Shown in pieces: positions 1 to 11,693 of a stretch of DNA of 24,652 nucleotides. How positions within the stretch are numbered: the stretch's first letter is position 1; each line of letters begins with the position of its first letter. A program made the translations under genes and the position numbers. This DNA is from a virus (Duplodnaviria; Heunggongvirae; Uroviricota; Caudoviricetes), in IMG/VR virus record IMGVR_UViG_2778261572_000014; one strand, given 5' to 3'. The notes under the pieces were generated by a model. It saw only the letters and a program-made list of their open reading frames with translations. It was not told the DNA's origin and did not search any database.

Positions 1-252
1 TTACCATATTTCGTCACCCGCAGGGGTGGATTTACCCCAGACATCCTGCTCGCTAAGTTCCGCGGCGTTCATGTCACACTGTGCCAGCAGTTCATCAAGC
101 GAGTAGCGCCTGGAGATGGGTGTCAGAATCAGTTGGTTGTTGCTCACCTGCGCTTCCACGCTCTGCCCCGGCTGTAAGTTAAGTTCTTTCATTACGATAT
201 TGGGAATGACCATACCTGCACTGTTCCCCCATCTTTTTATGGTAATACGCAT
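1..252 (-). CDS. chpS: MazE/ChpS-family antitoxin (AbrB-fold); most likely chromosomal ChpS (ChpBI)
   Basis: Minus-strand ORF with stop at 1-3. ATG at 252-250 sits 5 nt after AAGGAGG; the ORF track starts 2 codons earlier at a GTG. Product MRITIKRWGNSAGMVIPN... carries the KRWGNS signature of MazE-like antitoxins and matches my recollection of E. coli ChpS. Partner toxin would lie off-window. Confidence 0.8.
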   Translation of the reverse strand: MRITIKRWGNSAGMVIPNIVMKELNLQPGQSVEAQVSNNQLILTPISRRYSLDELLAQCDMNAAELSEQDVWGKSTPAGDEIW

Positions 253-457
253 CTGCACCTCCTTAAGTTATACAAAGTATAACTCACGGTGCTACAGGAA
301 ACGTTTTACCCCTGCACATTTGTGAACGCCAGCAGAGTTTTTTATGCGATTGCAGATATGGAAAGCGGCTCGGAGAGAAAAGCAAAAGATGGAAAAGTTA
401 CAAAAAAAAATCGCGAGATACATCGCATAAAACAACGCCACCCGAAGGTGACATGAA

Positions 458-480
458 GGAGGCCGAGCACACTGGCCTCC
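458..480 (-). terminator. Stem-loop GGAGGCC-N9-GGCCTCC downstream of int; weak terminator candidate
   Basis: Perfect 7-bp inverted repeat with 9-nt loop, 64 bp past the int stop on the int strand; no clean U-tract follows, so function is uncertain. Confidence 0.25.
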
Positions 481-543
481 CTTTGATATATCAATTAGTT
501 ACATTAATACACATAGTCTTAAATGGGCTTATTTAGTCCTATT

Positions 544-1539
544 TTATGGGCAATATCTGGACAACTCAGCCACAGGATTAAAGCGCACAGCATCCTGCAG
601 ATAATCCGGTGCAAAATGGGCATAAGTCATCGTCTGCTGAATAGTGCTATGCCCAAGTATTCTCTGCAAAGTGATGATATTCCCACCATTAATCATGAAG
701 TGAGTGGCAAAGGTATGCCGTAAAACATGTATCGACTGCCCTTCAGGAAGATCAGGCCTCACCTTTCTGATAGCAGCTCTGACAGCGGCATAACTTGGAT
801 AAATTAAACGACCAGTGGCCTTTGTTTTAATCATGCACTCCAGTTCTGACGATATAGGTATAACGCGACGCTTCCCATTTTTGGTTTCCATAAAAATGAC
901 TTTGCCGCTAATAACATGCTCCCCCTTGATATTTGCAACCTCACTCCATCTTCCACCTGTTGCCAGACACAACAAGACAGCTTTTAATTCATCACCAGAT
1001 AACAACTCCAGTAATCGTGGAATATCTTCATGATACAAATAAGCCATTTCAGGCTGTTTGATATTAAGTTTTTTCACATCATGAAACGGATTAGCCCCAG
1101 AATATTCCTCTGCGTCAATTAGTTTTGTGAAGAAACCACTCATCATTGCGCAATAACGATTAACCGTGGATTGTTTTATTCCGCGGTTAAGCAACAATAA
1201 CCGATAATTAATTATGTTCTTACGAGTAAGTTGGTCGCTGCGTGTAACATTAATACTCTCAAGATCACTAATGACCGCAGAAATACGCACTCGCTCCATC
1301 GCACCGTAAGGATGATTTTTCCCGTGGTATAGCCACCAACAATCCAGCAACTCCCTCAGCGAGCGCCGTTCTGTTGGCTTATCAACCCAGTCTTTGTCGT
1401 GGTAATGCTGCAATACATGACGCTCATACAAAACAGCCTCACCACGAGTATCAAATCGCCGCCTGAATCTTTTTCCTTCTGATCCAGCTGGCCGCACGTC
1501 CACACAGAATTTGCCATTAGCGAGCTTCTTAATCGACAT
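544..1539 (-). CDS. int: Tyrosine integrase, P2 Int family
   Basis: 331 aa from ATG 1539, which has GGAGGG 7 nt upstream; the ORF track's upstream ATG at 1575 lacks an SD. N-terminus MSIKKLANGKFCVDVRPAGSEGKRFRRRFD parallels P2 Int; C-terminal HVLRHTFATHFMINGGNIITLQRILGHSTIQQTMTYAHFAP carries the R..H-R-H..Y catalytic box. Confidence 0.9.
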   Translation of the reverse strand: MSIKKLANGKFCVDVRPAGSEGKRFRRRFDTRGEAVLYERHVLQHYHDKDWVDKPTERRSLRELLDCWWLYHGKNHPYGAMERVRISAVISDLESINVTRSDQLTRKNIINYRLLLLNRGIKQSTVNRYCAMMSGFFTKLIDAEEYSGANPFHDVKKLNIKQPEMAYLYHEDIPRLLELLSGDELKAVLLCLATGGRWSEVANIKGEHVISGKVIFMETKNGKRRVIPISSELECMIKTKATGRLIYPSYAAVRAAIRKVRPDLPEGQSIHVLRHTFATHFMINGGNIITLQRILGHSTIQQTMTYAHFAPDYLQDAVRFNPVAELSRYCP

Positions 1540-1605
1540 AAGGAAGCCCTCCAATGAAAACATCATCTTGATCACAGCTCTGGGAAATAAATGCCTGGTG
1601 AACCG

Positions 1606-1905
1606 TTAACCAGTCTTCTTGCCGGAGCGGGATGATTCCGCTTCGCCTTGCCCAATGTGTGCGAGAGCCGGTACAACCTGCCCGGCCTTGGGTTCAACTT
1701 CATCAAACAAAAACCAGTCGCGGTACTTACGGAACATGGGGGCTTTCAGAAGCTTTTTTGTTGACTCAAGGTTGGGTTCATTTCGTCCTTGCTCATATTG
1801 CCTTAATGCAGCAAGAGTAAGCCCAGTAATCTCTGCCATTTTTTCTTGTGTAAGCATTTCTGACTTCCGCATGATGCGAATTTTCATAGCTACGGTAGTT
1901 GACAT
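1606..1905 (-). CDS. C: Immunity repressor, P2 C family
   Basis: 99 aa, the same length as P2 C. MSTTVAMKIRIMRKSEMLTQEKMAEITGL... and C-terminal PALAHIGQGE...SGKKTG align with remembered P2 C (IVLMRKSEYL...PALAHFGQNE...SGQKTG). Divergent from cox as in P2. No SD before the ATG. Confidence 0.85.
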   Translation of the reverse strand: MSTTVAMKIRIMRKSEMLTQEKMAEITGLTLAALRQYEQGRNEPNLESTKKLLKAPMFRKYRDWFLFDEVEPKAGQVVPALAHIGQGEAESSRSGKKTG

Positions 1906-2013: not shown

Positions 2014-2439
2014 ATGCAAGAAAGCACTCAAAACGCGCCTGAGTCACTTTGCGGAACACGATGCGATCGCCTGTCAGAAATGCCAGAGGGGGTGCATCAA
2101 AAAACAGGACGCAAAGCACGTGAACGTGAAGAAATTCGACTTTCAGAAAATCCCTCGCATCTCCTGTCAAAAGAAGGATTTGCGATGTATATCGGAAAGA
2201 CCGTTGACGCCATCGTAAGCATGGCCAAAGCAGGAAAGCTACCTGCGGTGTATATGGCGGACCCTCTTAAACCAGGCGGAAACGCTGAACTCTACATCAA
2301 CAGAAAAGCGTGGGATGAAGCATGCGATCGCCTCATCGAAAACGCACCTCAGGAATGGCACGACTGGGAAAACCGTCTGTTTTTGTTTAAGCCAACAAGT
2401 GGCAGACGAAACAGAAACATCAGCGGTAAAGCAGCATAA
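2014..2439 (+). CDS. cox: Cox-like excisionase/transcriptional switch protein (start uncertain)
   Basis: ATG 2014 has GGAGGA 6 nt upstream. Segment FAMYIGKTVDAIVSMAKAGKLPAVYMADP resembles the P2 Cox HTH region. 141 aa is long for Cox (about 90 aa); internal ATGs at 2080 and 2185 are alternatives. Confidence 0.55.
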   Translation: MQESTQNAPESLCGTRCDRLSEMPEGVHQKTGRKAREREEIRLSENPSHLLSKEGFAMYIGKTVDAIVSMAKAGKLPAVYMADPLKPGGNAELYINRKAWDEACDRLIENAPQEWHDWENRLFLFKPTSGRRNRNISGKAA

Positions 2440-2476: not shown

Positions 2477-2827
2477 ATGAAGGAACGGCGCAATTCTTCA
2501 CAGCAGCGCTTCCGCAACGGGGCGGAACGCCACGCTAACCGTTTCGCTACCAGCGCATCACGCAGCAGCTCTCGCTACAGCCTGAGCGAAACACACGCAA
2601 CACCTGATGGCCATCCCGTAAAACAAATTGGCGAACACACCTGGCTGATTGAAAAAGCTGGAATCGTGGTCCACAAATGCCCACGCAATCCGTTTACCGG
2701 AAACCGCATTTTTGCACTGTTCAACGGCGACAATCAGTTCGGACAGGATTTCACATTGTACGAAGCACTACGCACGGTTGATCGTCTGCTGCGTGGACAG
2801 AGTTTTATTAAACAGGCTGATTTATAA
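2477..2827 (+). CDS. Hypothetical early protein (116 aa), R/S-rich N-terminal half
   Basis: ATG 2477 with GGCGGAG 9 nt upstream, co-oriented in the early operon. No family recognised. Confidence 0.5.
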   Translation: MKERRNSSQQRFRNGAERHANRFATSASRSSSRYSLSETHATPDGHPVKQIGEHTWLIEKAGIVVHKCPRNPFTGNRIFALFNGDNQFGQDFTLYEALRTVDRLLRGQSFIKQADL

Positions 2828-2837
2828 CAGGTGCTTT

Positions 2838-3116
2838 ATGACTAAAGACCATACTCAAGGTGTATTTATCCGCTTTATTGATTCTCGCGGTGAACTGTTA
2901 TTGCGTGCATCAGCTATTAATGGTGTGGCCCAGGCAAAAGACGCAACCACTCATATTTATTTGGACAGCGCCGCACAACTGATCGTGGAGCTTCCGTACC
3001 AGACTGTACGTGAAGTCATTAGCGAAGCTGAAAAGGCACGTCAGATTAATAGCGATGAACCATACATCGAAATTATCTGCATGGATTCAGAAGCTGAAAT
3101 TAAGAAAGCAGATTAA
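2838..3116 (+). CDS. Hypothetical early protein (92 aa)
   Basis: ORF beginning MTKDHTQGVFIRF. The longer track ORF from 2649 overlaps the previous gene by 180 nt in another frame, so the internal ATG 2838 is preferred. Confidence 0.45.
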   Translation: MTKDHTQGVFIRFIDSRGELLLRASAINGVAQAKDATTHIYLDSAAQLIVELPYQTVREVISEAEKARQINSDEPYIEIICMDSEAEIKKAD

Positions 3117-3127
3117 AGGGCGTTGTG

Positions 3128-3370
3128 ATGGGCAAAGAATATAAAACTCTCATTAACAAAGCACTTGAGCGTTTTTATTTTCGCTTAAGCGCATCAGGCG
3201 CTCATGCTGAACGTGCAGCCCGTGACTCATTGACCAGGGCAATCCGGAGTCTGTATGACGTGGCTTTTTACGCTGATGATCTGGATGCACTTAACGAACT
3301 TTCCGAGCTTATCTGCGCAGCAGAATGCGGGGAACATATTGAACCGTATAAGCTGGGGAATATCGCATGA
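3128..3370 (+). CDS. Hypothetical early protein (80 aa)
   Basis: ATG 3128; the track start at 3125 is a GTG one codon upstream. Stop overlaps the next small ORF (ATGA at 3367-3370). Confidence 0.5.
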   Translation: MGKEYKTLINKALERFYFRLSASGAHAERAARDSLTRAIRSLYDVAFYADDLDALNELSELICAAECGEHIEPYKLGNIA

Positions 3371-3480
3371 ATATATTTATTTCGTGGCTTGTTCTGATTT
3401 TTTCGGTGGTTTGCGCAATTGGTATTATGCGAATTATTCATTCAGTAAAAAAGATTGAACGTTTTTTCACTGGCGAATAA
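3367..3480 (+). CDS. Small hydrophobic peptide (37 aa), predicted single-pass membrane peptide
   Basis: MNIFISWLVLIFSVVCAIGIMRIIHSVKKIERFFTGE: one hydrophobic helix followed by a basic tail. Translationally coupled to the upstream ORF by ATGA overlap. Below the ORF-track size cutoff. Confidence 0.3.
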   Translation: MNIFISWLVLIFSVVCAIGIMRIIHSVKKIERFFTGE

Positions 3481-3573
3481 CAGCATAAACAAAACACAAG
3501 ATTAAATACGAAAACATGAAAACCATCCGCATTCGCGGAGGCGTTCGCACACGTAAATAACGGAGATACAAAA

Positions 3574-3948
3574 ATGTACGCAAAAGAAGAAGGCATTATT
3601 CACAACCTGAATGAAATCGCAGATATGCAAGGTGAAGTAGCAAAAGAAGCCATGGCGAATGGCCACATGGACACCGCAACTCTCTCATTAATAATCGCCA
3701 AAACTGCTACTGAAGCCGCTGAAATCATCGAAAAACAGGCTGCCGAGCTGGAAGTTATCAGGGCACAGCAAACAAAAGAAAATTCGCCAGCCACCAATAT
3801 CGGCAAGCGAGTTCGCCTCGCTGTTGCTGACGACAAAATTTACATCATCGTAGCCGAGTCTAAAGACCAGGAGAAACTCTTAATTAAGGAGATCTCCGCC
3901 AACCCCGCTCTGGAAGCTAATAAAAAAGAAGTCCGCTTCATTGACTGA
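3574..3948 (+). CDS. Hypothetical early protein (124 aa), acidic, helical-looking
   Basis: ATG 3574 with GGAGA 7 nt upstream; the antisense ORF 3600-3836 is rejected. Confidence 0.55.
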   Translation: MYAKEEGIIHNLNEIADMQGEVAKEAMANGHMDTATLSLIIAKTATEAAEIIEKQAAELEVIRAQQTKENSPATNIGKRVRLAVADDKIYIIVAESKDQEKLLIKEISANPALEANKKEVRFID

Positions 3949-5463: not shown

Positions 5464-5583
5464 GTGATCATAATGCACACACAAAAAAACCGCTTGCCAT
5501 GCCGCAATCAGTCAGGTTACATTTCCGCTGCACCTCATAAAACGGGTGCCGGGTTTCGCAGCCTGCTGACTACAAGAGCGCAC

Positions 5584-5604
5584 AACCGCGCCAGCGGTTT
5601 TTTT
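5584..5604 (+). terminator. Intrinsic terminator candidate inside the early operon
   Basis: AACCGC-GCCA-GCGGTT stem-loop followed by a T-run (TTTTTTT through 5604), about 120 bp after the 4903-5463 ORF. Confidence 0.45.
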
Positions 5605-5783
5605 GTGCGTACTGTATTGCCACGTTTTTTTCGCGTCAGAATTATGGCGGGGCGTACGGGGCCGACTTCGGTCGGGCCGGGATCTCTTGTAGCCGGTACT
5701 GCGAACCTCGTACGTCTCGCCACCCACAGTTTCGCAGCTCTGGATGGTGAGTTTTCACAACTTACTACAAGAGGCCACATATC

Positions 5784-6014
5784 ATGGCAAACCGCAAACA
5801 GCACCGCACTATCGCGGAGCGTCGTCACATCCAGACTGAAATCAACCGCAGACTTTCCCGCGCATTCCGCGTCGCTAAAATCATGCACATCAATATGCTG
5901 CATGAGCGTAGCTGCGAACTTTCAAACCTCTATTCATCCGCTGTTTTCAGCTATCTGGCGGATGATCTGCGCGAGCTTCAACAGCTCATCCAGCAGCAAA
6001 ACAAACTCCATTAA
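5784..6014 (+). CDS. Hypothetical early protein (76 aa), basic
   Basis: ATG 5784 with AAGAGG 9 nt upstream. Balanced composition, unlike the overlapping S/T/R-rich 5464-6090 frame, which is rejected. Confidence 0.5.
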   Translation: MANRKQHRTIAERRHIQTEINRRLSRAFRVAKIMHINMLHERSCELSNLYSSAVFSYLADDLRELQQLIQQQNKLH

Positions 6015-6458: not shown

Positions 6459-9281
6459 ATGACGGCAGAGTACATCAGGGACTGGCAACAACCGCGCCAC
6501 GCAGTGGGACGTGAAGGAACGGGGATCCCCGTTCCTGAATCTGCGCTTTCCTCCTGGCTGGATGCCTACCGGGCAGAGAACGAGCGCCGCCAGGAAATGG
6601 CTGATGCGGCGTTCTCCGCCACGCCGCTGGGCAACCTGATTAATAAAAGCCTGGATGCACAGGAAAAACAGGACAAAACCATCACACTGGCAGGAGACGC
6701 CAGAAAACAGGCACGCGGCGCGGTGGATGAAGCCATGGCCTCGCTGCGCCTGCTGCCGTCCTATCTGCGCGATCCGCTTATTCGCCACCTCTCCTTCCTG
6801 CGCAAAAAACAGGAAGTCGATCGCCGGAAAGGCAAAAAGAGCTGGCAGGCTGAACGCTACGCGCGCGGAACCCTGCGCAAAATATTCGAACGTCTGGATC
6901 GCACTGACGGACACTGGCTGACACCGGGTTATCGCTTCCTTGCCGGACGCGAACGCCTGGACGATTTGCTTTACCTGCCGCAGCTCAACAAACACCAGAT
7001 ACAGACGCTGGCCACCATGACGGCGGCGATGTTCAGCAGCACCTTCGAAAAACTCTGCGATGGCTTTGGCGCGACCGATGGCGAACTGACCATGGATGTA
7101 ACGCTGAAGGCGTATCAGATGCTGGCCCGCATGGCGTTACACCTGCACATCATGCCTCCACATTATGACGCACTGACAACAGATAAAGACCGGAGGAACG
7201 AACCGGACACGGAGCTGCTGCCGGGCGCAATCCTTCGCCTGACCTGTGCGGAATGGTGGAAACGCAAACTGTGGCTGTTACGTTGCGAGTGGAGAGAAGA
7301 ACAACTCCGCGCCGCCTGTCTGGTTTCCAGAAAAACATCACCCTATCTGAGCCAGGACGCGTTAAGCGAGTTTCGCGCACAGCGCGAGAAAACACGCGAT
7401 TTCCTGAAAAGTTTCATGCTGGAAAACGAAGACGGGTTCACGATTGATCTCGAGACAGTGTATTACGCGGGAGTAAGTAACCCGGTTCACCGTAAGGCAG
7501 AAATGATGGCCACCATGAAGGGGCTGGAACTTCTGGCCGAAGCCCGTGGCGACAAAGCGGTGTTTCTGACTGTCACCTGCCCGTCAAAATACCACGCCAC
7601 AACAGAGAACGGTCATCCGAATCCCAAATGGAACGGGGCCACCATGCGCGACTCCAGCGATTACCTGGTTAACACGTTTTTTGCAGCGGTCCGCAAGAAA
7701 CTGAACCGCGACGGCCTGCGCTGGTATGGCATCCGCACGGTGGAGCCTCACCATGACGGCACCGTGCACTGGCATATGATGGTCTTTGCTCATCCGGAAG
7801 AAATCGACACCATTGTGTCCCACACCCGCGATATTGCCATTCAGGAAGATCGTCACGAGCTGGGTGATGATATTACCCCACGCTTTAAGGCGGAGTACGT
7901 CGACGGCTCAAAAGGCACGCCAACCAGCTACATCGCCACCTACATCGGAAAGAACCTGGACAGCCGCGCCGTGGATGGCATCGACCCGAAAACGGGCAAG
8001 CCACGCGTTGACCACGAAACAGGTAAATCAATGGCCGAGAGCGTGGAGCGCGCCATCGGCTGGGCGCGCCTTCACCGGGTCCGCCAGTTCCAGTTCTTTG
8101 GCATCCCCTCCCGTCAGGTGTGGCGTGAACTCCGCCGCCTTGCCAGCCAGATGGCACGCAACCCGGAAGGCCCGCAACGGCTGAAGGATGACGCAATGGA
8201 TGCGGTACTCGCTGCCGCTGATGCCGGATGTTTTGCCACCTACATTGAAAAACAGGGTGGCGTACTTGTTCCGCGCAAGGACTACCTGATTCGCACAGCC
8301 TACGACCTCGCAGATGAGCTGAACGATTACGGCGAACAGAGTGTACAGATTTACGGGATCTGGTCGCCATTCATCGGGGAATCCTCCCGTGTGTGCACGC
8401 ATCCGGATAACTGGAAGCTGGTAAGACGTAAACCGGAAGCGGAAGACAGCGCCCGCGAAAATGGTTTTGACCTTCAGGGCGGCCCTGCCGCCCCTTGGAC
8501 TCGTGGCAATAACTGTCCCCGTGTACAGGAAACGGACAACAACGGGACAGAACAGCCGGAAGAACGGCCAGCACCGTGGCCGCAGCTCCCTGACGGCGTT
8601 GAAGTGAACGAATGGATGCGCTCACTGAAACGGCACGAACGCCGGGCGCTGATGCGTTCGCTTCGTGACAAACAGGCAAAAAACAGCAGTGATGAAATGC
8701 AGAGCTGGACACAGAGCCGCAAACAGCAGCGGCCTTTGCCTGATAACCACGAATTACTCGCTAAAGAATGGCGGGAGTCTGCCGAATCTCTCGGCCTGCA
8801 TATCGGTGAACAGCAGATGCAGCACCTGTTACGGGGCGGCAGCCTGTACGTTGACGGCAGCATCATTGCACCGCAGGGATTTGAAATTGTACGCAAACCG
8901 GATACCCGCCCGGACAGCCGAATCACGCAGCTCTGGCAGCGCCTGAGCCGTAATCACGGCGTAAGCAGCACGGAGATCCGCCATAACCCGGTCGCCGGCT
9001 ATCTGGAACAGCTGGGGATATCAGACCCCGAAGCCGCCGCACGCCTGGCATCCACACTTCAGCAGGACCAGAACACCATGAAAACCCCCGTTACCGTGCT
9101 TTCTGACATGCTGCGCGCCATCCGTGACGCAGAGCACGCACAGAGAATCAGTGAAACCACTGAACGCGCCCGCCGCAAAGCAGACCTGCTGCGGGGTAGC
9201 CTGACCAGTGGAAACAAAAAACAGACAGAAACGGGATTCATAAAACCCGTAAATGAGCAAAAAACGCGCCGCGATATATGA
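6459..9281 (+). CDS. A: Rolling-circle replication initiator endonuclease, P2 gpA family
   Basis: 940 aa. Contains TVTCPSKYH and RTVEPHHDGTVHWHMMVF (HUH-type motif), followed by YIATYIGKN, as in P2 A (LTAPSKYH, RVVEPHHDGTPHWHMMLF). C-terminal third is long and low-complexity. Confidence 0.9.
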   Translation: MTAEYIRDWQQPRHAVGREGTGIPVPESALSSWLDAYRAENERRQEMADAAFSATPLGNLINKSLDAQEKQDKTITLAGDARKQARGAVDEAMASLRLLPSYLRDPLIRHLSFLRKKQEVDRRKGKKSWQAERYARGTLRKIFERLDRTDGHWLTPGYRFLAGRERLDDLLYLPQLNKHQIQTLATMTAAMFSSTFEKLCDGFGATDGELTMDVTLKAYQMLARMALHLHIMPPHYDALTTDKDRRNEPDTELLPGAILRLTCAEWWKRKLWLLRCEWREEQLRAACLVSRKTSPYLSQDALSEFRAQREKTRDFLKSFMLENEDGFTIDLETVYYAGVSNPVHRKAEMMATMKGLELLAEARGDKAVFLTVTCPSKYHATTENGHPNPKWNGATMRDSSDYLVNTFFAAVRKKLNRDGLRWYGIRTVEPHHDGTVHWHMMVFAHPEEIDTIVSHTRDIAIQEDRHELGDDITPRFKAEYVDGSKGTPTSYIATYIGKNLDSRAVDGIDPKTGKPRVDHETGKSMAESVERAIGWARLHRVRQFQFFGIPSRQVWRELRRLASQMARNPEGPQRLKDDAMDAVLAAADAGCFATYIEKQGGVLVPRKDYLIRTAYDLADELNDYGEQSVQIYGIWSPFIGESSRVCTHPDNWKLVRRKPEAEDSARENGFDLQGGPAAPWTRGNNCPRVQETDNNGTEQPEERPAPWPQLPDGVEVNEWMRSLKRHERRALMRSLRDKQAKNSSDEMQSWTQSRKQQRPLPDNHELLAKEWRESAESLGLHIGEQQMQHLLRGGSLYVDGSIIAPQGFEIVRKPDTRPDSRITQLWQRLSRNHGVSSTEIRHNPVAGYLEQLGISDPEAAARLASTLQQDQNTMKTPVTVLSDMLRAIRDAEHAQRISETTERARRKADLLRGSLTSGNKKQTETGFIKPVNEQKTRRDI

Positions 9282-9357: not shown

Positions 9358-10317
9358 ATGAAAATTTGTATCGACGACGGCTCCACCAACATCAAGCTGG
9401 CATGGACTGAGAACGGCGAACGCCGCAACGCCATCAGCCCGAACAGCTTCAAATCGGAATGGTCTGCGCCGTTCGGTGGCATACAGCCCGCGAACTACAT
9501 GCTTGATGGCGTGCGCTATGGTTTTGATCCGGTCAGCGATCGCTTTGTCCAGACGACCGACACGCAATACCAGTACAGCGATGTGAATGTAATTGCCATT
9601 CATCACGCGCTGGTCAAATCAGGCATCACGCCACAGGAGGTGGATGTGGTTGTCACCCTGCCACTGAGCGAGTATTTCGACACAAACGCACAGCCGGACA
9701 TGGCCAACATCAACCGCAAAAAAGCAAACGTCATGCGCCCGGTGGCGTACCAAAACGGAAAAGCATTCACTATCCGTAACGTACGGGTTATGCCTGAATC
9801 CATTCCGGCTGGTTTTAAAGCACTGGCTGACATGAGTCCGTTTGAATCCCTGCTGATTGTGGATTTAGGCGGAACCACGCTGGATGTGGCAAAGGTTCAG
9901 GGGCAACTGGCAGGTATCAGCCAGGTGTTTTGCGATCCACACGTAGGCGTTTCCCTGATGGCCGATGCCGTACTGTCGGTGATGGCCACTAACGGTATGC
10001 GTACCAGTCACCACATCGCCAATACCATTATCGAACATCGCCATGATGAAGCCTGGCTGCGCCAGCACATCCACAATGACGCGCATTACGCCAGCCTGAT
10101 GGCGGTTATTCGTGAAAAGGAAGAAACACTGAAACAACGCGTGATCCGCGCGCTGGCGGGTTTTTCGGGTTACGGGCGGGTGATGGTTGTCGGTGGTGGG
10201 GCGGAGATTGTGGCACCCGCTATCCGCGAAGCCTGCGGAGTTAATGCGACTTTCATCACGGACGGGGTGCCACAGTTTGCTCTGGTTAATGGGCTGTACG
10301 CAATGGACAAGGAGTAA
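9358..10317 (+). CDS. parM: ParM/StbA-family actin-like segregation ATPase
   Basis: 319 aa, ATG 9358 with AAGGAA upstream. MKICIDDGSTNIKLAW..., YSDVNVIAIHHAL, VMPESIPAG, LIVDLGGTTLD, VMVVGGGAE, LVNGLY run in register with remembered plasmid R1 ParM (MLVFIDDGSTNIKLQW..., LIIDLGGTTLD, VMVIGGGAE, LVNGMY). Confidence 0.85.
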   Translation: MKICIDDGSTNIKLAWTENGERRNAISPNSFKSEWSAPFGGIQPANYMLDGVRYGFDPVSDRFVQTTDTQYQYSDVNVIAIHHALVKSGITPQEVDVVVTLPLSEYFDTNAQPDMANINRKKANVMRPVAYQNGKAFTIRNVRVMPESIPAGFKALADMSPFESLLIVDLGGTTLDVAKVQGQLAGISQVFCDPHVGVSLMADAVLSVMATNGMRTSHHIANTIIEHRHDEAWLRQHIHNDAHYASLMAVIREKEETLKQRVIRALAGFSGYGRVMVVGGGAEIVAPAIREACGVNATFITDGVPQFALVNGLYAMDKE

Positions 10318-10685: not shown

Positions 10686-11693
10686 GTGAGCATCATTCAG
10701 CGCTGCCGAGCAGAAAACACTTTTAATTTGGTTTCCATGTCTGGCGGGAAAGACTCACTGGCGCAATGTTTGTATGCCATAGAAAACGATATACAGCATG
10801 AGCGAGTGTTTGCTGATACGGGACACGAACACCCACAAACGATGGAGTACCTTGACTACCTGGAACAAAAGCTGGGCCCAATTCGTCGCGTAAAAGCCGA
10901 CTTCACTCGCCAGATAGAAGGTAAGCGCAAATTCATTGCTGAAAAATGGCCAGTATCTCTTGTTGCAGAGTGCGGAATGACGCCTGATGAAGCAGCGGAA
11001 CGTGTTGCTCGTGCGCTGGAAATCCTCCACCCAACCGGAAATCCATTTCTTGACCTGTGCATGTGGAAAGGTCGTTTCCCGAGCACTAAAGCGCGGTTCT
11101 GTACATTCGAACTGAAACACGAACCAGTGCGCACTCAGGTGGTGCAACCTGCGCTTGATGAATATGACGAAGTTATCTCCTGGCAGGGCGTGCGTGCTCA
11201 GGAATCGCCATCGAGGGCACGCCTGCAAGTGTGGGTGGAGGATGCGGACAATACCCCCGGATTGCATGTCTATCGTCCGATTCTCAACTGGCTACATGAG
11301 GATGTTTTCGCTATTGCCAGGCGTCACGGGATTAAACCCAACCCACTCTACCAACAAGGATGCAGCCGCGTTGGGTGTATGCCATGCATTCATGCCAGAA
11401 AATCTGAACTGGCGGAAATTTTTCAGCGCTGGCCAGAGGAAATCGCCAGAGTGGCAGAGTGGGAACGATTAGTTGCAGCCTGCTCTCGCCGCGGCAACTC
11501 AACGTTTTTCCCGTCAACTCATGACCCGCGCCGGGCAGAATGTCGCATAGATGTTGTTACCGTAGACAGCTACGGAATCGAAACCTATCGCGACTGGGCA
11601 ATGACAACCCGGGGCGGCGCTCAATTTGACCTGCTGGCGAGCACGAACGATAAGGCGGTGTGCAACAGTGTTTATGCGGGAGTATGCGAATGA
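10686..11693 (+). CDS. PAPS-reductase-family PP-loop ATP pyrophosphatase-like protein (DndC/CysH-like fold), function unknown
   Basis: 335 aa. GTG start 10686 with GGAGG 6 nt upstream; no upstream in-frame ATG. N-terminal VSMSGGKDS PP-loop, FADTGHEHPQT, WQGVRAQESPSRA, and C-terminal cysteine cluster CSRVGCMPC. Confidence 0.8.
   Translation: MSIIQRCRAENTFNLVSMSGGKDSLAQCLYAIENDIQHERVFADTGHEHPQTMEYLDYLEQKLGPIRRVKADFTRQIEGKRKFIAEKWPVSLVAECGMTPDEAAERVARALEILHPTGNPFLDLCMWKGRFPSTKARFCTFELKHEPVRTQVVQPALDEYDEVISWQGVRAQESPSRARLQVWVEDADNTPGLHVYRPILNWLHEDVFAIARRHGIKPNPLYQQGCSRVGCMPCIHARKSELAEIFQRWPEEIARVAEWERLVAACSRRGNSTFFPSTHDPRRAECRIDVVTVDSYGIETYRDWAMTTRGGAQFDLLASTNDKAVCNSVYAGVCE

Follow-up and report, generated by a model that had tools for sequence, protein, structure and literature searches.

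A 37-codon open reading frame that begins inside the stop codon of its upstream neighbour, in the early region of an E. coli prophage, raises two questions: is it a gene and, if so, what would its product do during phage growth? We examined it in a window of 24,652 nucleotides, by which we mean the whole stretch of DNA that was analysed. The initial annotation had described two overlapping frames encoding 80 and 37 amino acids, and their boundaries proved right to the base (Table 1), the ATG of the second frame (3367-3369) overlapping the TGA of the first (3368-3370).

Genomic context of the gene pair

The prophage in the window is of the P88-like type (Xuanwuvirus, Peduoviridae, the P2 family) found in E. 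coli, and is integrated beside a chpS/MazE-like antitoxin gene. The pair belongs to its early lytic operon, where it lies between cox and the gpA nuclease gene and downstream of the P2 C-like repressor gene on the opposite strand. Several variable small genes are found between the 37-aa frame and the 'derepression' gene, and the late genes, including the lysis cassette, begin at about 12 kb. Within this cassette DUF2570 is matched only weakly (E = 0.0013, short of the Pfam cut-off); we read this match as the i-spanin, with LysC as the o-spanin. On the plus strand of the early operon in the window, the 37-aa frame is the sole strongly hydrophobic frame of 20-70 aa. A search for an internal promoter for the pair found promoter-like sites to be no commoner than in shuffled sequences.

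Table 1 Positions of the features discussed, numbered from the first nucleotide of the window
Feature	Position	Strand	Remark
ChpS/MazE-type antitoxin gene	1-258	-	Left end of window, integrase adjoining
Integrase gene	544-1575	-	P2-like layout
C-type repressor gene, 99 aa (P2 C-like)	1606-1905	-	Faces the rightward early operon
cox-like gene (Phage_Cox)	2014-2439	+	Early operon
DUF4761 gene	2477-2827	+	Early operon
PHROG-3800 protein gene, 92 aa	2838-3116	+	Early operon
DUF4754 gene, 80 aa and TGA	3128-3370	+	Soluble, helical product; upstream partner of the pair
Shine-Dalgarno-like GGGGA	3355-3359	+	Within the DUF4754 frame; 8 nt upstream of the ATG of the peptide
ATGA start/stop overlap	3367-3370	+	Read directly from the sequence; architecture of translational coupling
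37-aa single-pass membrane protein gene and TAA	3367-3480	+	MNIFISWLVLIFSVVCAIGIMRIIHSVKKIERFFTGE; transmembrane helix at about residues 3-21, amphipathic net-positive tail 22-37
Hairpin UCCGC-AUUC-GCGGA, 5-bp stem	3526-3539	+	Conserved; closes the module
'Derepression' gene	5784-6014	+	Early operon
gpA-type replication nuclease gene (Phage_GPA)	6459-9281	+	Early operon
ParM/StbA gene	9358-10317	+	Between the gpA gene and the portal gene
PAPS-reductase-domain gene	10686-11693	+	Between the gpA gene and the portal gene
Lysis cassette: Phage_holin_3_1 holin (PF05106), M15 endolysin, spanins	about 18.7-20.0 kb		Late region

Two RNA elements were matched at Rfam gathering level in the gap of about 320 nt directly upstream of the 'derepression' gene, namely the Hfq-binding sRNA isrK (5530-5604, plus strand; 66.7 bits) and the C4 antisense RNA (5640-5727, plus strand; 81.1 bits), and this region looks like a P1/P7 c4-ant-like control module within a P2-family early region. 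Further to the right, the variable region of the prophage carries as cargo the genes for an actin-like segregation protein, ParM/StbA (full length, E = 1.5e-81), and for a protein with a PAPS-reductase domain (E = 2.2e-36). Among relatives of the prophage, the diverged L088 has integrated next to the same PemK/MazE pair as the window (268-519 of that locus); the neighbouring gene is pheA in L002, glsA in L090 and one for a molybdopterin oxidoreductase in L094. In L086, a Mu-type transposase gene (1-1795, minus strand; HTH_Tnp_Mu_1, Mu-transpos_C) replaces the integrase, C and cox genes of other relatives and is followed by a DUF4761-DUF4754-peptide-…-gpA early region; this locus may be a hybrid or contain an adjacent element.

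Evidence that the 37-codon frame is a gene

We sampled the pair from either side. From the DUF4754 side, 84 loci were drawn from IMG/VR and GTDB genomes, and 83 of them have the 37-aa frame open and overlapping DUF4754 by the same ATGA. The 84th (L002; NZ_CP128979.1, about 3629-3871) is the closest relative of the window, at 98.3% identity. From the peptide side, a DUF4754 gene ending in ATGA was found at 80 of 80 loci, a contig end cutting it in three. Conservation in related prophages had been named beforehand as a test of the frame, and it was found throughout: the pair is present in 164 of 164 loci sampled from either side, including the three cut by contig ends and one with a nonsense change in DUF4754. 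This last case is L002, in which the stop falls at codon 4 of DUF4754 (MGK*), PGAP calls a shortened product of 72 aa and the 37-aa frame is intact; it may represent a natural uncoupling of the pair.

More distant homologues of the peptide were sought with phmmer, exhaustively over 1.84 billion representatives. This gave eight peptide clusters at identities down to 44% (E = 1.9e-13 to 6.4e-4 for the eight representatives), and the homologues at 44-62% identity retain both frame and motif. A tblastn search with the most diverged peptide yielded no additional phage records. For the peptide, mean dN divided by mean dS is 0.22 in 476 pairwise comparisons between distinct alleles, or 0.26 when the first two codons are left out, similar to the 0.27 obtained for DUF4754. 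Variable sites of the peptide gene are distributed over the three codon positions as 8:4:15 in the close group and 24:13:30 overall. Together, the low dN/dS, the third-position bias and the conserved homologues indicate that the frame encodes a protein under purifying selection. The 37-codon frame is a real, conserved gene.

The reading most at odds with this is that of a frame without a functional product, either a chance occurrence or a leader whose translation controls the hairpin or the genes downstream. The frame is indeed very short and a conserved hairpin follows it. Nevertheless, conservation of the amino-acid sequence down to 44% identity and a dN/dS well below 1 stand against both versions, and the stop codon, 45 nt before the hairpin, is too far away for ribosome-hairpin coupling; we regard this reading as most improbable.

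The peptide and its DUF4754 partner

A single transmembrane helix followed by a basic tail had been predicted for the peptide at the outset, and this description held. The Kyte-Doolittle mean over the 19 residues 3-21 is 2.7, the AF2 model is one uninterrupted helix from residue 2 to 35 (pLDDT 90.8), and the tail (RIIHSVKKIERFFTGE) has a net charge of +2 and is strongly amphipathic (muH 0.72). Among homologues the tail carries a net charge of +1 to +7, and the N-terminus has no charged side chain. By the positive-inside rule for membrane topology, the peptide would be oriented with its N-terminus out and its C-terminus in.

We define the family as P88 gp07-like 'prophage membrane proteins' of 37-41 aa whose gene immediately follows one of the DUF4754 type and shares the four nucleotides ATGA with it. 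The window peptide is found in exactly this location and carries the family motif M-[SN]-[IV]-[FL]-x-S-W…L…A-[IV]-G-[IT]-[MV]-[RK]-[IV]-I…K-x-I-E-x-x-F-[TS]-[GDE]. In the family alignment M1, S6, W7, L10 and I24 are invariant, and F4, I11, A17, G19, I20, M21, I23 and K28 nearly so. Two surfaces stand out, a conserved small-residue face on the transmembrane helix, [S/A]13xxxA17xG19, and a hydrophobic seam along the tail, I23/[VIL]27/I30/F34; these would be surfaces of the type used in helix-helix or protein binding. The C-terminus exists in three forms, …FFTGE (37 aa), …LFTGEERRK (41 aa) and …FSLxNNxxNKTxx (45 aa), which places the conserved core at residues 1-28. The 45-aa allele, …FSL[VAM]NNxxNKTxx, is recurrent (L076, L030, L070, L055 and L073 from IMG/VR; P0064 and P0067) and retains the transmembrane helix and the start of the tail, so that the FFTGE end is not universally required. 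Comparison of the peptide with Pfam, PHROGs, NCBIfam, PADLOC and PDB sequences gave no family match, and an all-Pfam scan of the window peptide and five diverged homologues gave none even at E <= 10.

One transmembrane helix with a charged C-terminal tail is a holin-like outline, and a lysis regulator had been among the roles first proposed. A regulator of lysis timing, whether holin-, antiholin- or pinholin-like, is however very unlikely here, since the pair, at 3.1-3.5 kb, is part of the early operon and a complete late lysis cassette is found about 15 kb away, at 18.7-20.0 kb. Also, the peptide has no holin family match in Pfam, whose models we take to include holins as well as Kil and DicB.

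The upstream protein is a member of the Pfam family DUF4754 (PF15946; E = 2.8e-54; score 181.7 bits, where the cut-off is 27; match over the full length, residues 1-80) and matches PHROG 2549, where its function is given as unknown. Its AF2 model (pLDDT 89.7) has helices at residues 4-48 and 52-66 and a disordered C-terminal tail (…EPY…), which is conserved although unstructured (pLDDT < 50 at residues 78-80). Searches of this model against the PDB and BFVD gave only non-significant helical-bundle matches, and a DUF4754 profile against the PDB gave designed helical repeats only. A second search for DUF4754 homologues added little diversity.

Junction, recombination and downstream hairpin

The ATGA overlap was found at every intact junction examined, including those of five diverged DUF4754 types. 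In the diverged lineages the DUF4754-type proteins are 26-40% identical to that of the window and the arrangement is the same, with purine-rich Shine-Dalgarno-like motifs before the ATG (GAGGTGG, GAAGGGGAA, GAGGAG and CAGGAGGAA). This purine run is retained in each lineage despite differences in the DUF4754 C-terminus that it overlaps. As a separate matter, an RNA structure occluding the Shine-Dalgarno site and start codon of the peptide was considered and rejected, with a z-score of -1.2 for the single sequence and a consensus showing a weak, invariant 5-bp stem without covariation.

Sequence exchange occurs at this junction. Two loci, L086 and L088, have identical peptide DNA (dS = 0) and DUF4754 alleles that are only 42% identical, the identity rising from about 50% to 100% within some 30 nt of the junction, which marks a breakpoint. 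Window-type DUF4754 is paired with both 37-aa and 41-aa peptide types. At the other end, numerous matches to the window, from E. coli as well as from phages, stop at about 3553, just past the hairpin, at a mosaic breakpoint. Recombination independent of DUF4754, combined with the breakpoint near 3553, indicates that peptide and hairpin behave as an exchangeable cassette, which in the sampled loci is nonetheless always found behind a DUF4754 gene. This pattern of linkage argues for co-expression or a generic functional link, and against a tightly co-adapted toxin-antidote or lock-and-key pair.

These observations bear directly on whether the two proteins form a complex, a heterodimer at the inner membrane in which the peptide would anchor or recruit DUF4754, or DUF4754 would chaperone or regulate the peptide. 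Linkage, gene order and overlap are invariant over the five DUF4754 types and all sampled loci, translational coupling favours matched and co-localised synthesis, and the conserved unstructured tail of DUF4754 could serve as a docking peptide. Against this stand the independent recombination of the two genes and the occurrence of window-type DUF4754 with peptides of two lengths. Natural fusions of the two proteins would have been of interest in this context, but the longer database proteins that suggested them are frameshifted assembly artefacts. On balance we consider such a complex rather unlikely, if worth keeping in view.

The hairpin begins 45 nt past the peptide stop, is preceded by an A-run (flanks 3511-3553) and is present in all lineages except L094. 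Over 24 distinct variants, 99.2% of cells are consistent with its pairing; in five variants the loop-closing C-G pair is replaced by U-A, a compensatory change. Two one-sided changes produce G.U and U.G wobbles that would be A.C mismatches on the opposite strand; as they are workable only in plus-strand RNA, they favour an RNA element of this strand. Its plus-strand tail (GGCGUUCGCACACG) has no U-tract, unlike that of an intrinsic terminator, and a pattern scan found the hairpin to be terminator-like on the minus strand only, where a U-rich tail exists. Rfam gave no match for it. P2 and 186 have annotated early-operon terminators at the equivalent point, after B and after dhr (tR1), respectively, and the hairpin may be a degenerate or leaky counterpart of these or, alternatively, a processing or stability element. 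A 14-codon frame spanning it (3517-3561, plus strand; MKTIRIRGGVRTRK) was set aside as a chance occurrence, its start codon being absent in P88 and other relatives.

Distribution and existing annotation

The region 3000-3700 is matched at 84-92% identity by 14 phage records (P88, P884B11, vB_EcoM-569R5, Citrobacter phage Shae_phiSM and others) and in 1362 of 5426 complete E. coli genomes (about 25%), including O157:H7 and ST131. The DUF4754 family as such is essentially limited to prophages of Escherichia, Shigella, Salmonella and Citrobacter. One sampled locus is labelled Vagococcus sp. (Firmicutes; L083, NZ_JBQPOM010000071.1) and carries DUF4754 at 98% identity with an E. coli-type peptide, probably because the assembly is contaminated with enterobacterial DNA.

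Contrary to the expectation that a frame of this size would fall below annotation thresholds and be easy to miss, it has already been annotated. The RefSeq record of P88 lists the same two genes as SF19_gp06, 'DUF4754 family protein', and SF19_gp07, 'membrane protein', and in E. coli PGAP calls a 'DUF4754 family protein' and a 'hypothetical protein'. The peptide is named 'Prophage membrane protein' in UniProt, the identical sequence is present in NCBI and UniRef, and two phage RefSeq records omit the gene. Identity to P88 is 100% for the DUF4754 protein and 92% for the peptide, the allelic differences of the window peptide being N2/F12/V15. Existing public records of the pair give no function, and the literature searched contained no mention of DUF4754, of the peptide or of a function for either. 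The 37-aa gene is therefore best described as encoding an uncharacterised small phage single-pass membrane protein, which is very widespread, unsurprising and already annotated.

Discussion

In this study, we asked what a short frame overlapping the end of a DUF4754 gene contributes to a P88-like prophage. The proposal of a small membrane-active phage peptide stands in its general class: our data support a small membrane protein that spans the bilayer once and that a temperate phage co-expresses with the upstream gene from its early lytic operon. Among the specific roles first suggested, lysis regulation is disfavoured, and our results do not discriminate between division inhibition and toxicity.

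A toxic peptide that damages the membrane, in the manner of Hok, TisB, Fst or Ldr and perhaps with DUF4754 as its protein antidote, was one candidate. Type I toxins (Hok/Gef, Ldr, TisB, Fst) resemble the peptide in size and in having a short hydrophobic helix followed by a charged tail. In the usual type II toxin-antitoxin layout an upstream soluble gene precedes a downstream toxic gene with an ATGA overlap, and the pair has this type II/IV arrangement of a small soluble gene first and a 4-nt overlap, a likeness of architecture alone. In contrast to such systems, the peptide matches no toxin family in PADLOC or in Pfam, which presumably includes Hok, Ldr, TisB, Fst and Ibs models, and PADLOC returned no meaningful match to a recognisable toxin-antitoxin or defence family at the pair. 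No antisense RNA family came near its gathering score in Rfam, which leaves room for a new sRNA, and no promoter was found above chance. The early operon is repressed and polycistronic, and within it the peptide gene is an internal cistron with translational coupling to its neighbour, not a self-standing constitutive cassette. Natural non-cognate combinations of DUF4754 and peptide add to this, and a depolarising toxin made early would starve the phage's own replication. We thus consider a toxin improbable.

Small membrane proteins can also block phage entry, T4 Imm and the roughly 30-aa PfsE of Pf4 being examples of exclusion proteins. By analogy, the peptide might bind some inner-membrane component that competing or sibling phages require to bring in their DNA while the lytic cycle is under way, and a small single-pass inner-membrane protein made early, with allelic diversity that includes three alternative tails, would suit such a role. 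Most prophage exclusion genes, however, lie in positions that are expressed in the lysogen, unlike this gene; the pair also lies outside the known P2-family defence hotspots and is without a PADLOC match, and its dN/dS indicates purifying and not diversifying selection. Superinfection exclusion appears quite unlikely.

The closest parallel in position is found in phage 186, likewise a member of the Peduoviridae and the nearest relative that has been characterised by experiment. Its fil-dhr-tR1 segment occupies the slot after the switch genes and before a hairpin or terminator and replication gene A, and, like our pair, fil and dhr are two small overlapping genes. According to the annotation of the 186 record, Fil prevents the cell from dividing and Dhr lowers replication of the host. 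The parallel ends there: DUF4754 does not align to Fil or Dhr, a profile of the peptide compared with Fil gives an hhalign probability of 0.4%, neither Fil nor Dhr is a membrane or hydrophobic protein, and tR1 has a U-tract, which the hairpin of the window lacks. Further, no small transmembrane frame comparable to the peptide was found in the early operons of P2 and 186. Given this and the absence of homology to Fil or Dhr, the analogy is one of position alone. In the hhalign comparison and the all-Pfam scan, the peptide likewise showed no sequence homology to the phage division inhibitors as a group (186 Fil, lambda Kil, DicB). It is only through its place, matching that of fil-dhr-tR1, that a role in division inhibition or host takeover is plausible.

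In terms of its build, the peptide resembles the small single-pass regulators of larger membrane proteins, such as Caulobacter SidA (29 aa, a divisome inhibitor), E. coli Blr, AcrZ, MgtS and MgrB, and Pf4 PfsE. These regulators are about 30-50 aa long, have one transmembrane helix, a short charged tail and small-residue packing motifs, and act by binding, not catalysis. The window peptide shares their size, its one helix, the short charged tail and the small-residue helix-packing motifs. In contrast, it has no sequence relationship to them in the all-Pfam scan, is phage-encoded in an early lytic operon and is always coupled to DUF4754.

On these grounds, our tentatively preferred reading, to which we would give somewhat less than an even chance, is that the peptide is an early-lytic modulator that binds a host inner-membrane protein. 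It would be transcribed together with DUF4754 from the C-repressed early (Pe/cox) operon, and as such be made on infection or induction and not in the quiescent lysogen, a timing deduced from operon layout. Its own Shine-Dalgarno-like site would start translation, aided by ribosomes terminating at the overlapping DUF4754 stop. In the inner membrane, the N-terminal helix would span the bilayer with its N-terminus outside, leaving the amphipathic positive tail in the cytoplasm, and the [S/A]13xxxA17xG19 face together with the I23/V27/I30/F34 seam could then dock on a host inner-membrane protein or complex. Such docking would change a host process early in lytic growth, which would amount to host takeover and involve neither pores nor lysis timing, with a block of cell division or envelope growth as the leading specific guess. 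Topology, expression timing, target and phenotype are all predictions in this scheme. Since the equivalent slot of 186 holds two overlapping host-shut-off genes, host takeover is the most economical reading. The presence of the gene in every sampled lineage member is as compatible with a regulatory or structural role as with a takeover gene that could be dispensed with.

As it stands, the finding introduces no new principle, for the gene is an ordinary kind of already-annotated hypothetical gene. Small membrane proteins are under-studied, and several that are phage-encoded or SOS-induced precisely inhibit essential membrane machines. With purifying selection and a defined regulatory context, the peptide is a cheap and well-posed candidate for an expression or deletion study. 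A bolder possibility, which we rate as rather unlikely, is that the peptides are a new family of phage-encoded single-pass membrane effectors which, with DUF4754, make up a lineage-wide early-lytic module of host takeover directed at an essential machine of the inner membrane, for instance the divisome or elongasome, through the small-xxx-small face and the tail. If true, this would yield a novel inhibitory peptide and a way into a step of P2-family development that is still uncharacterised.
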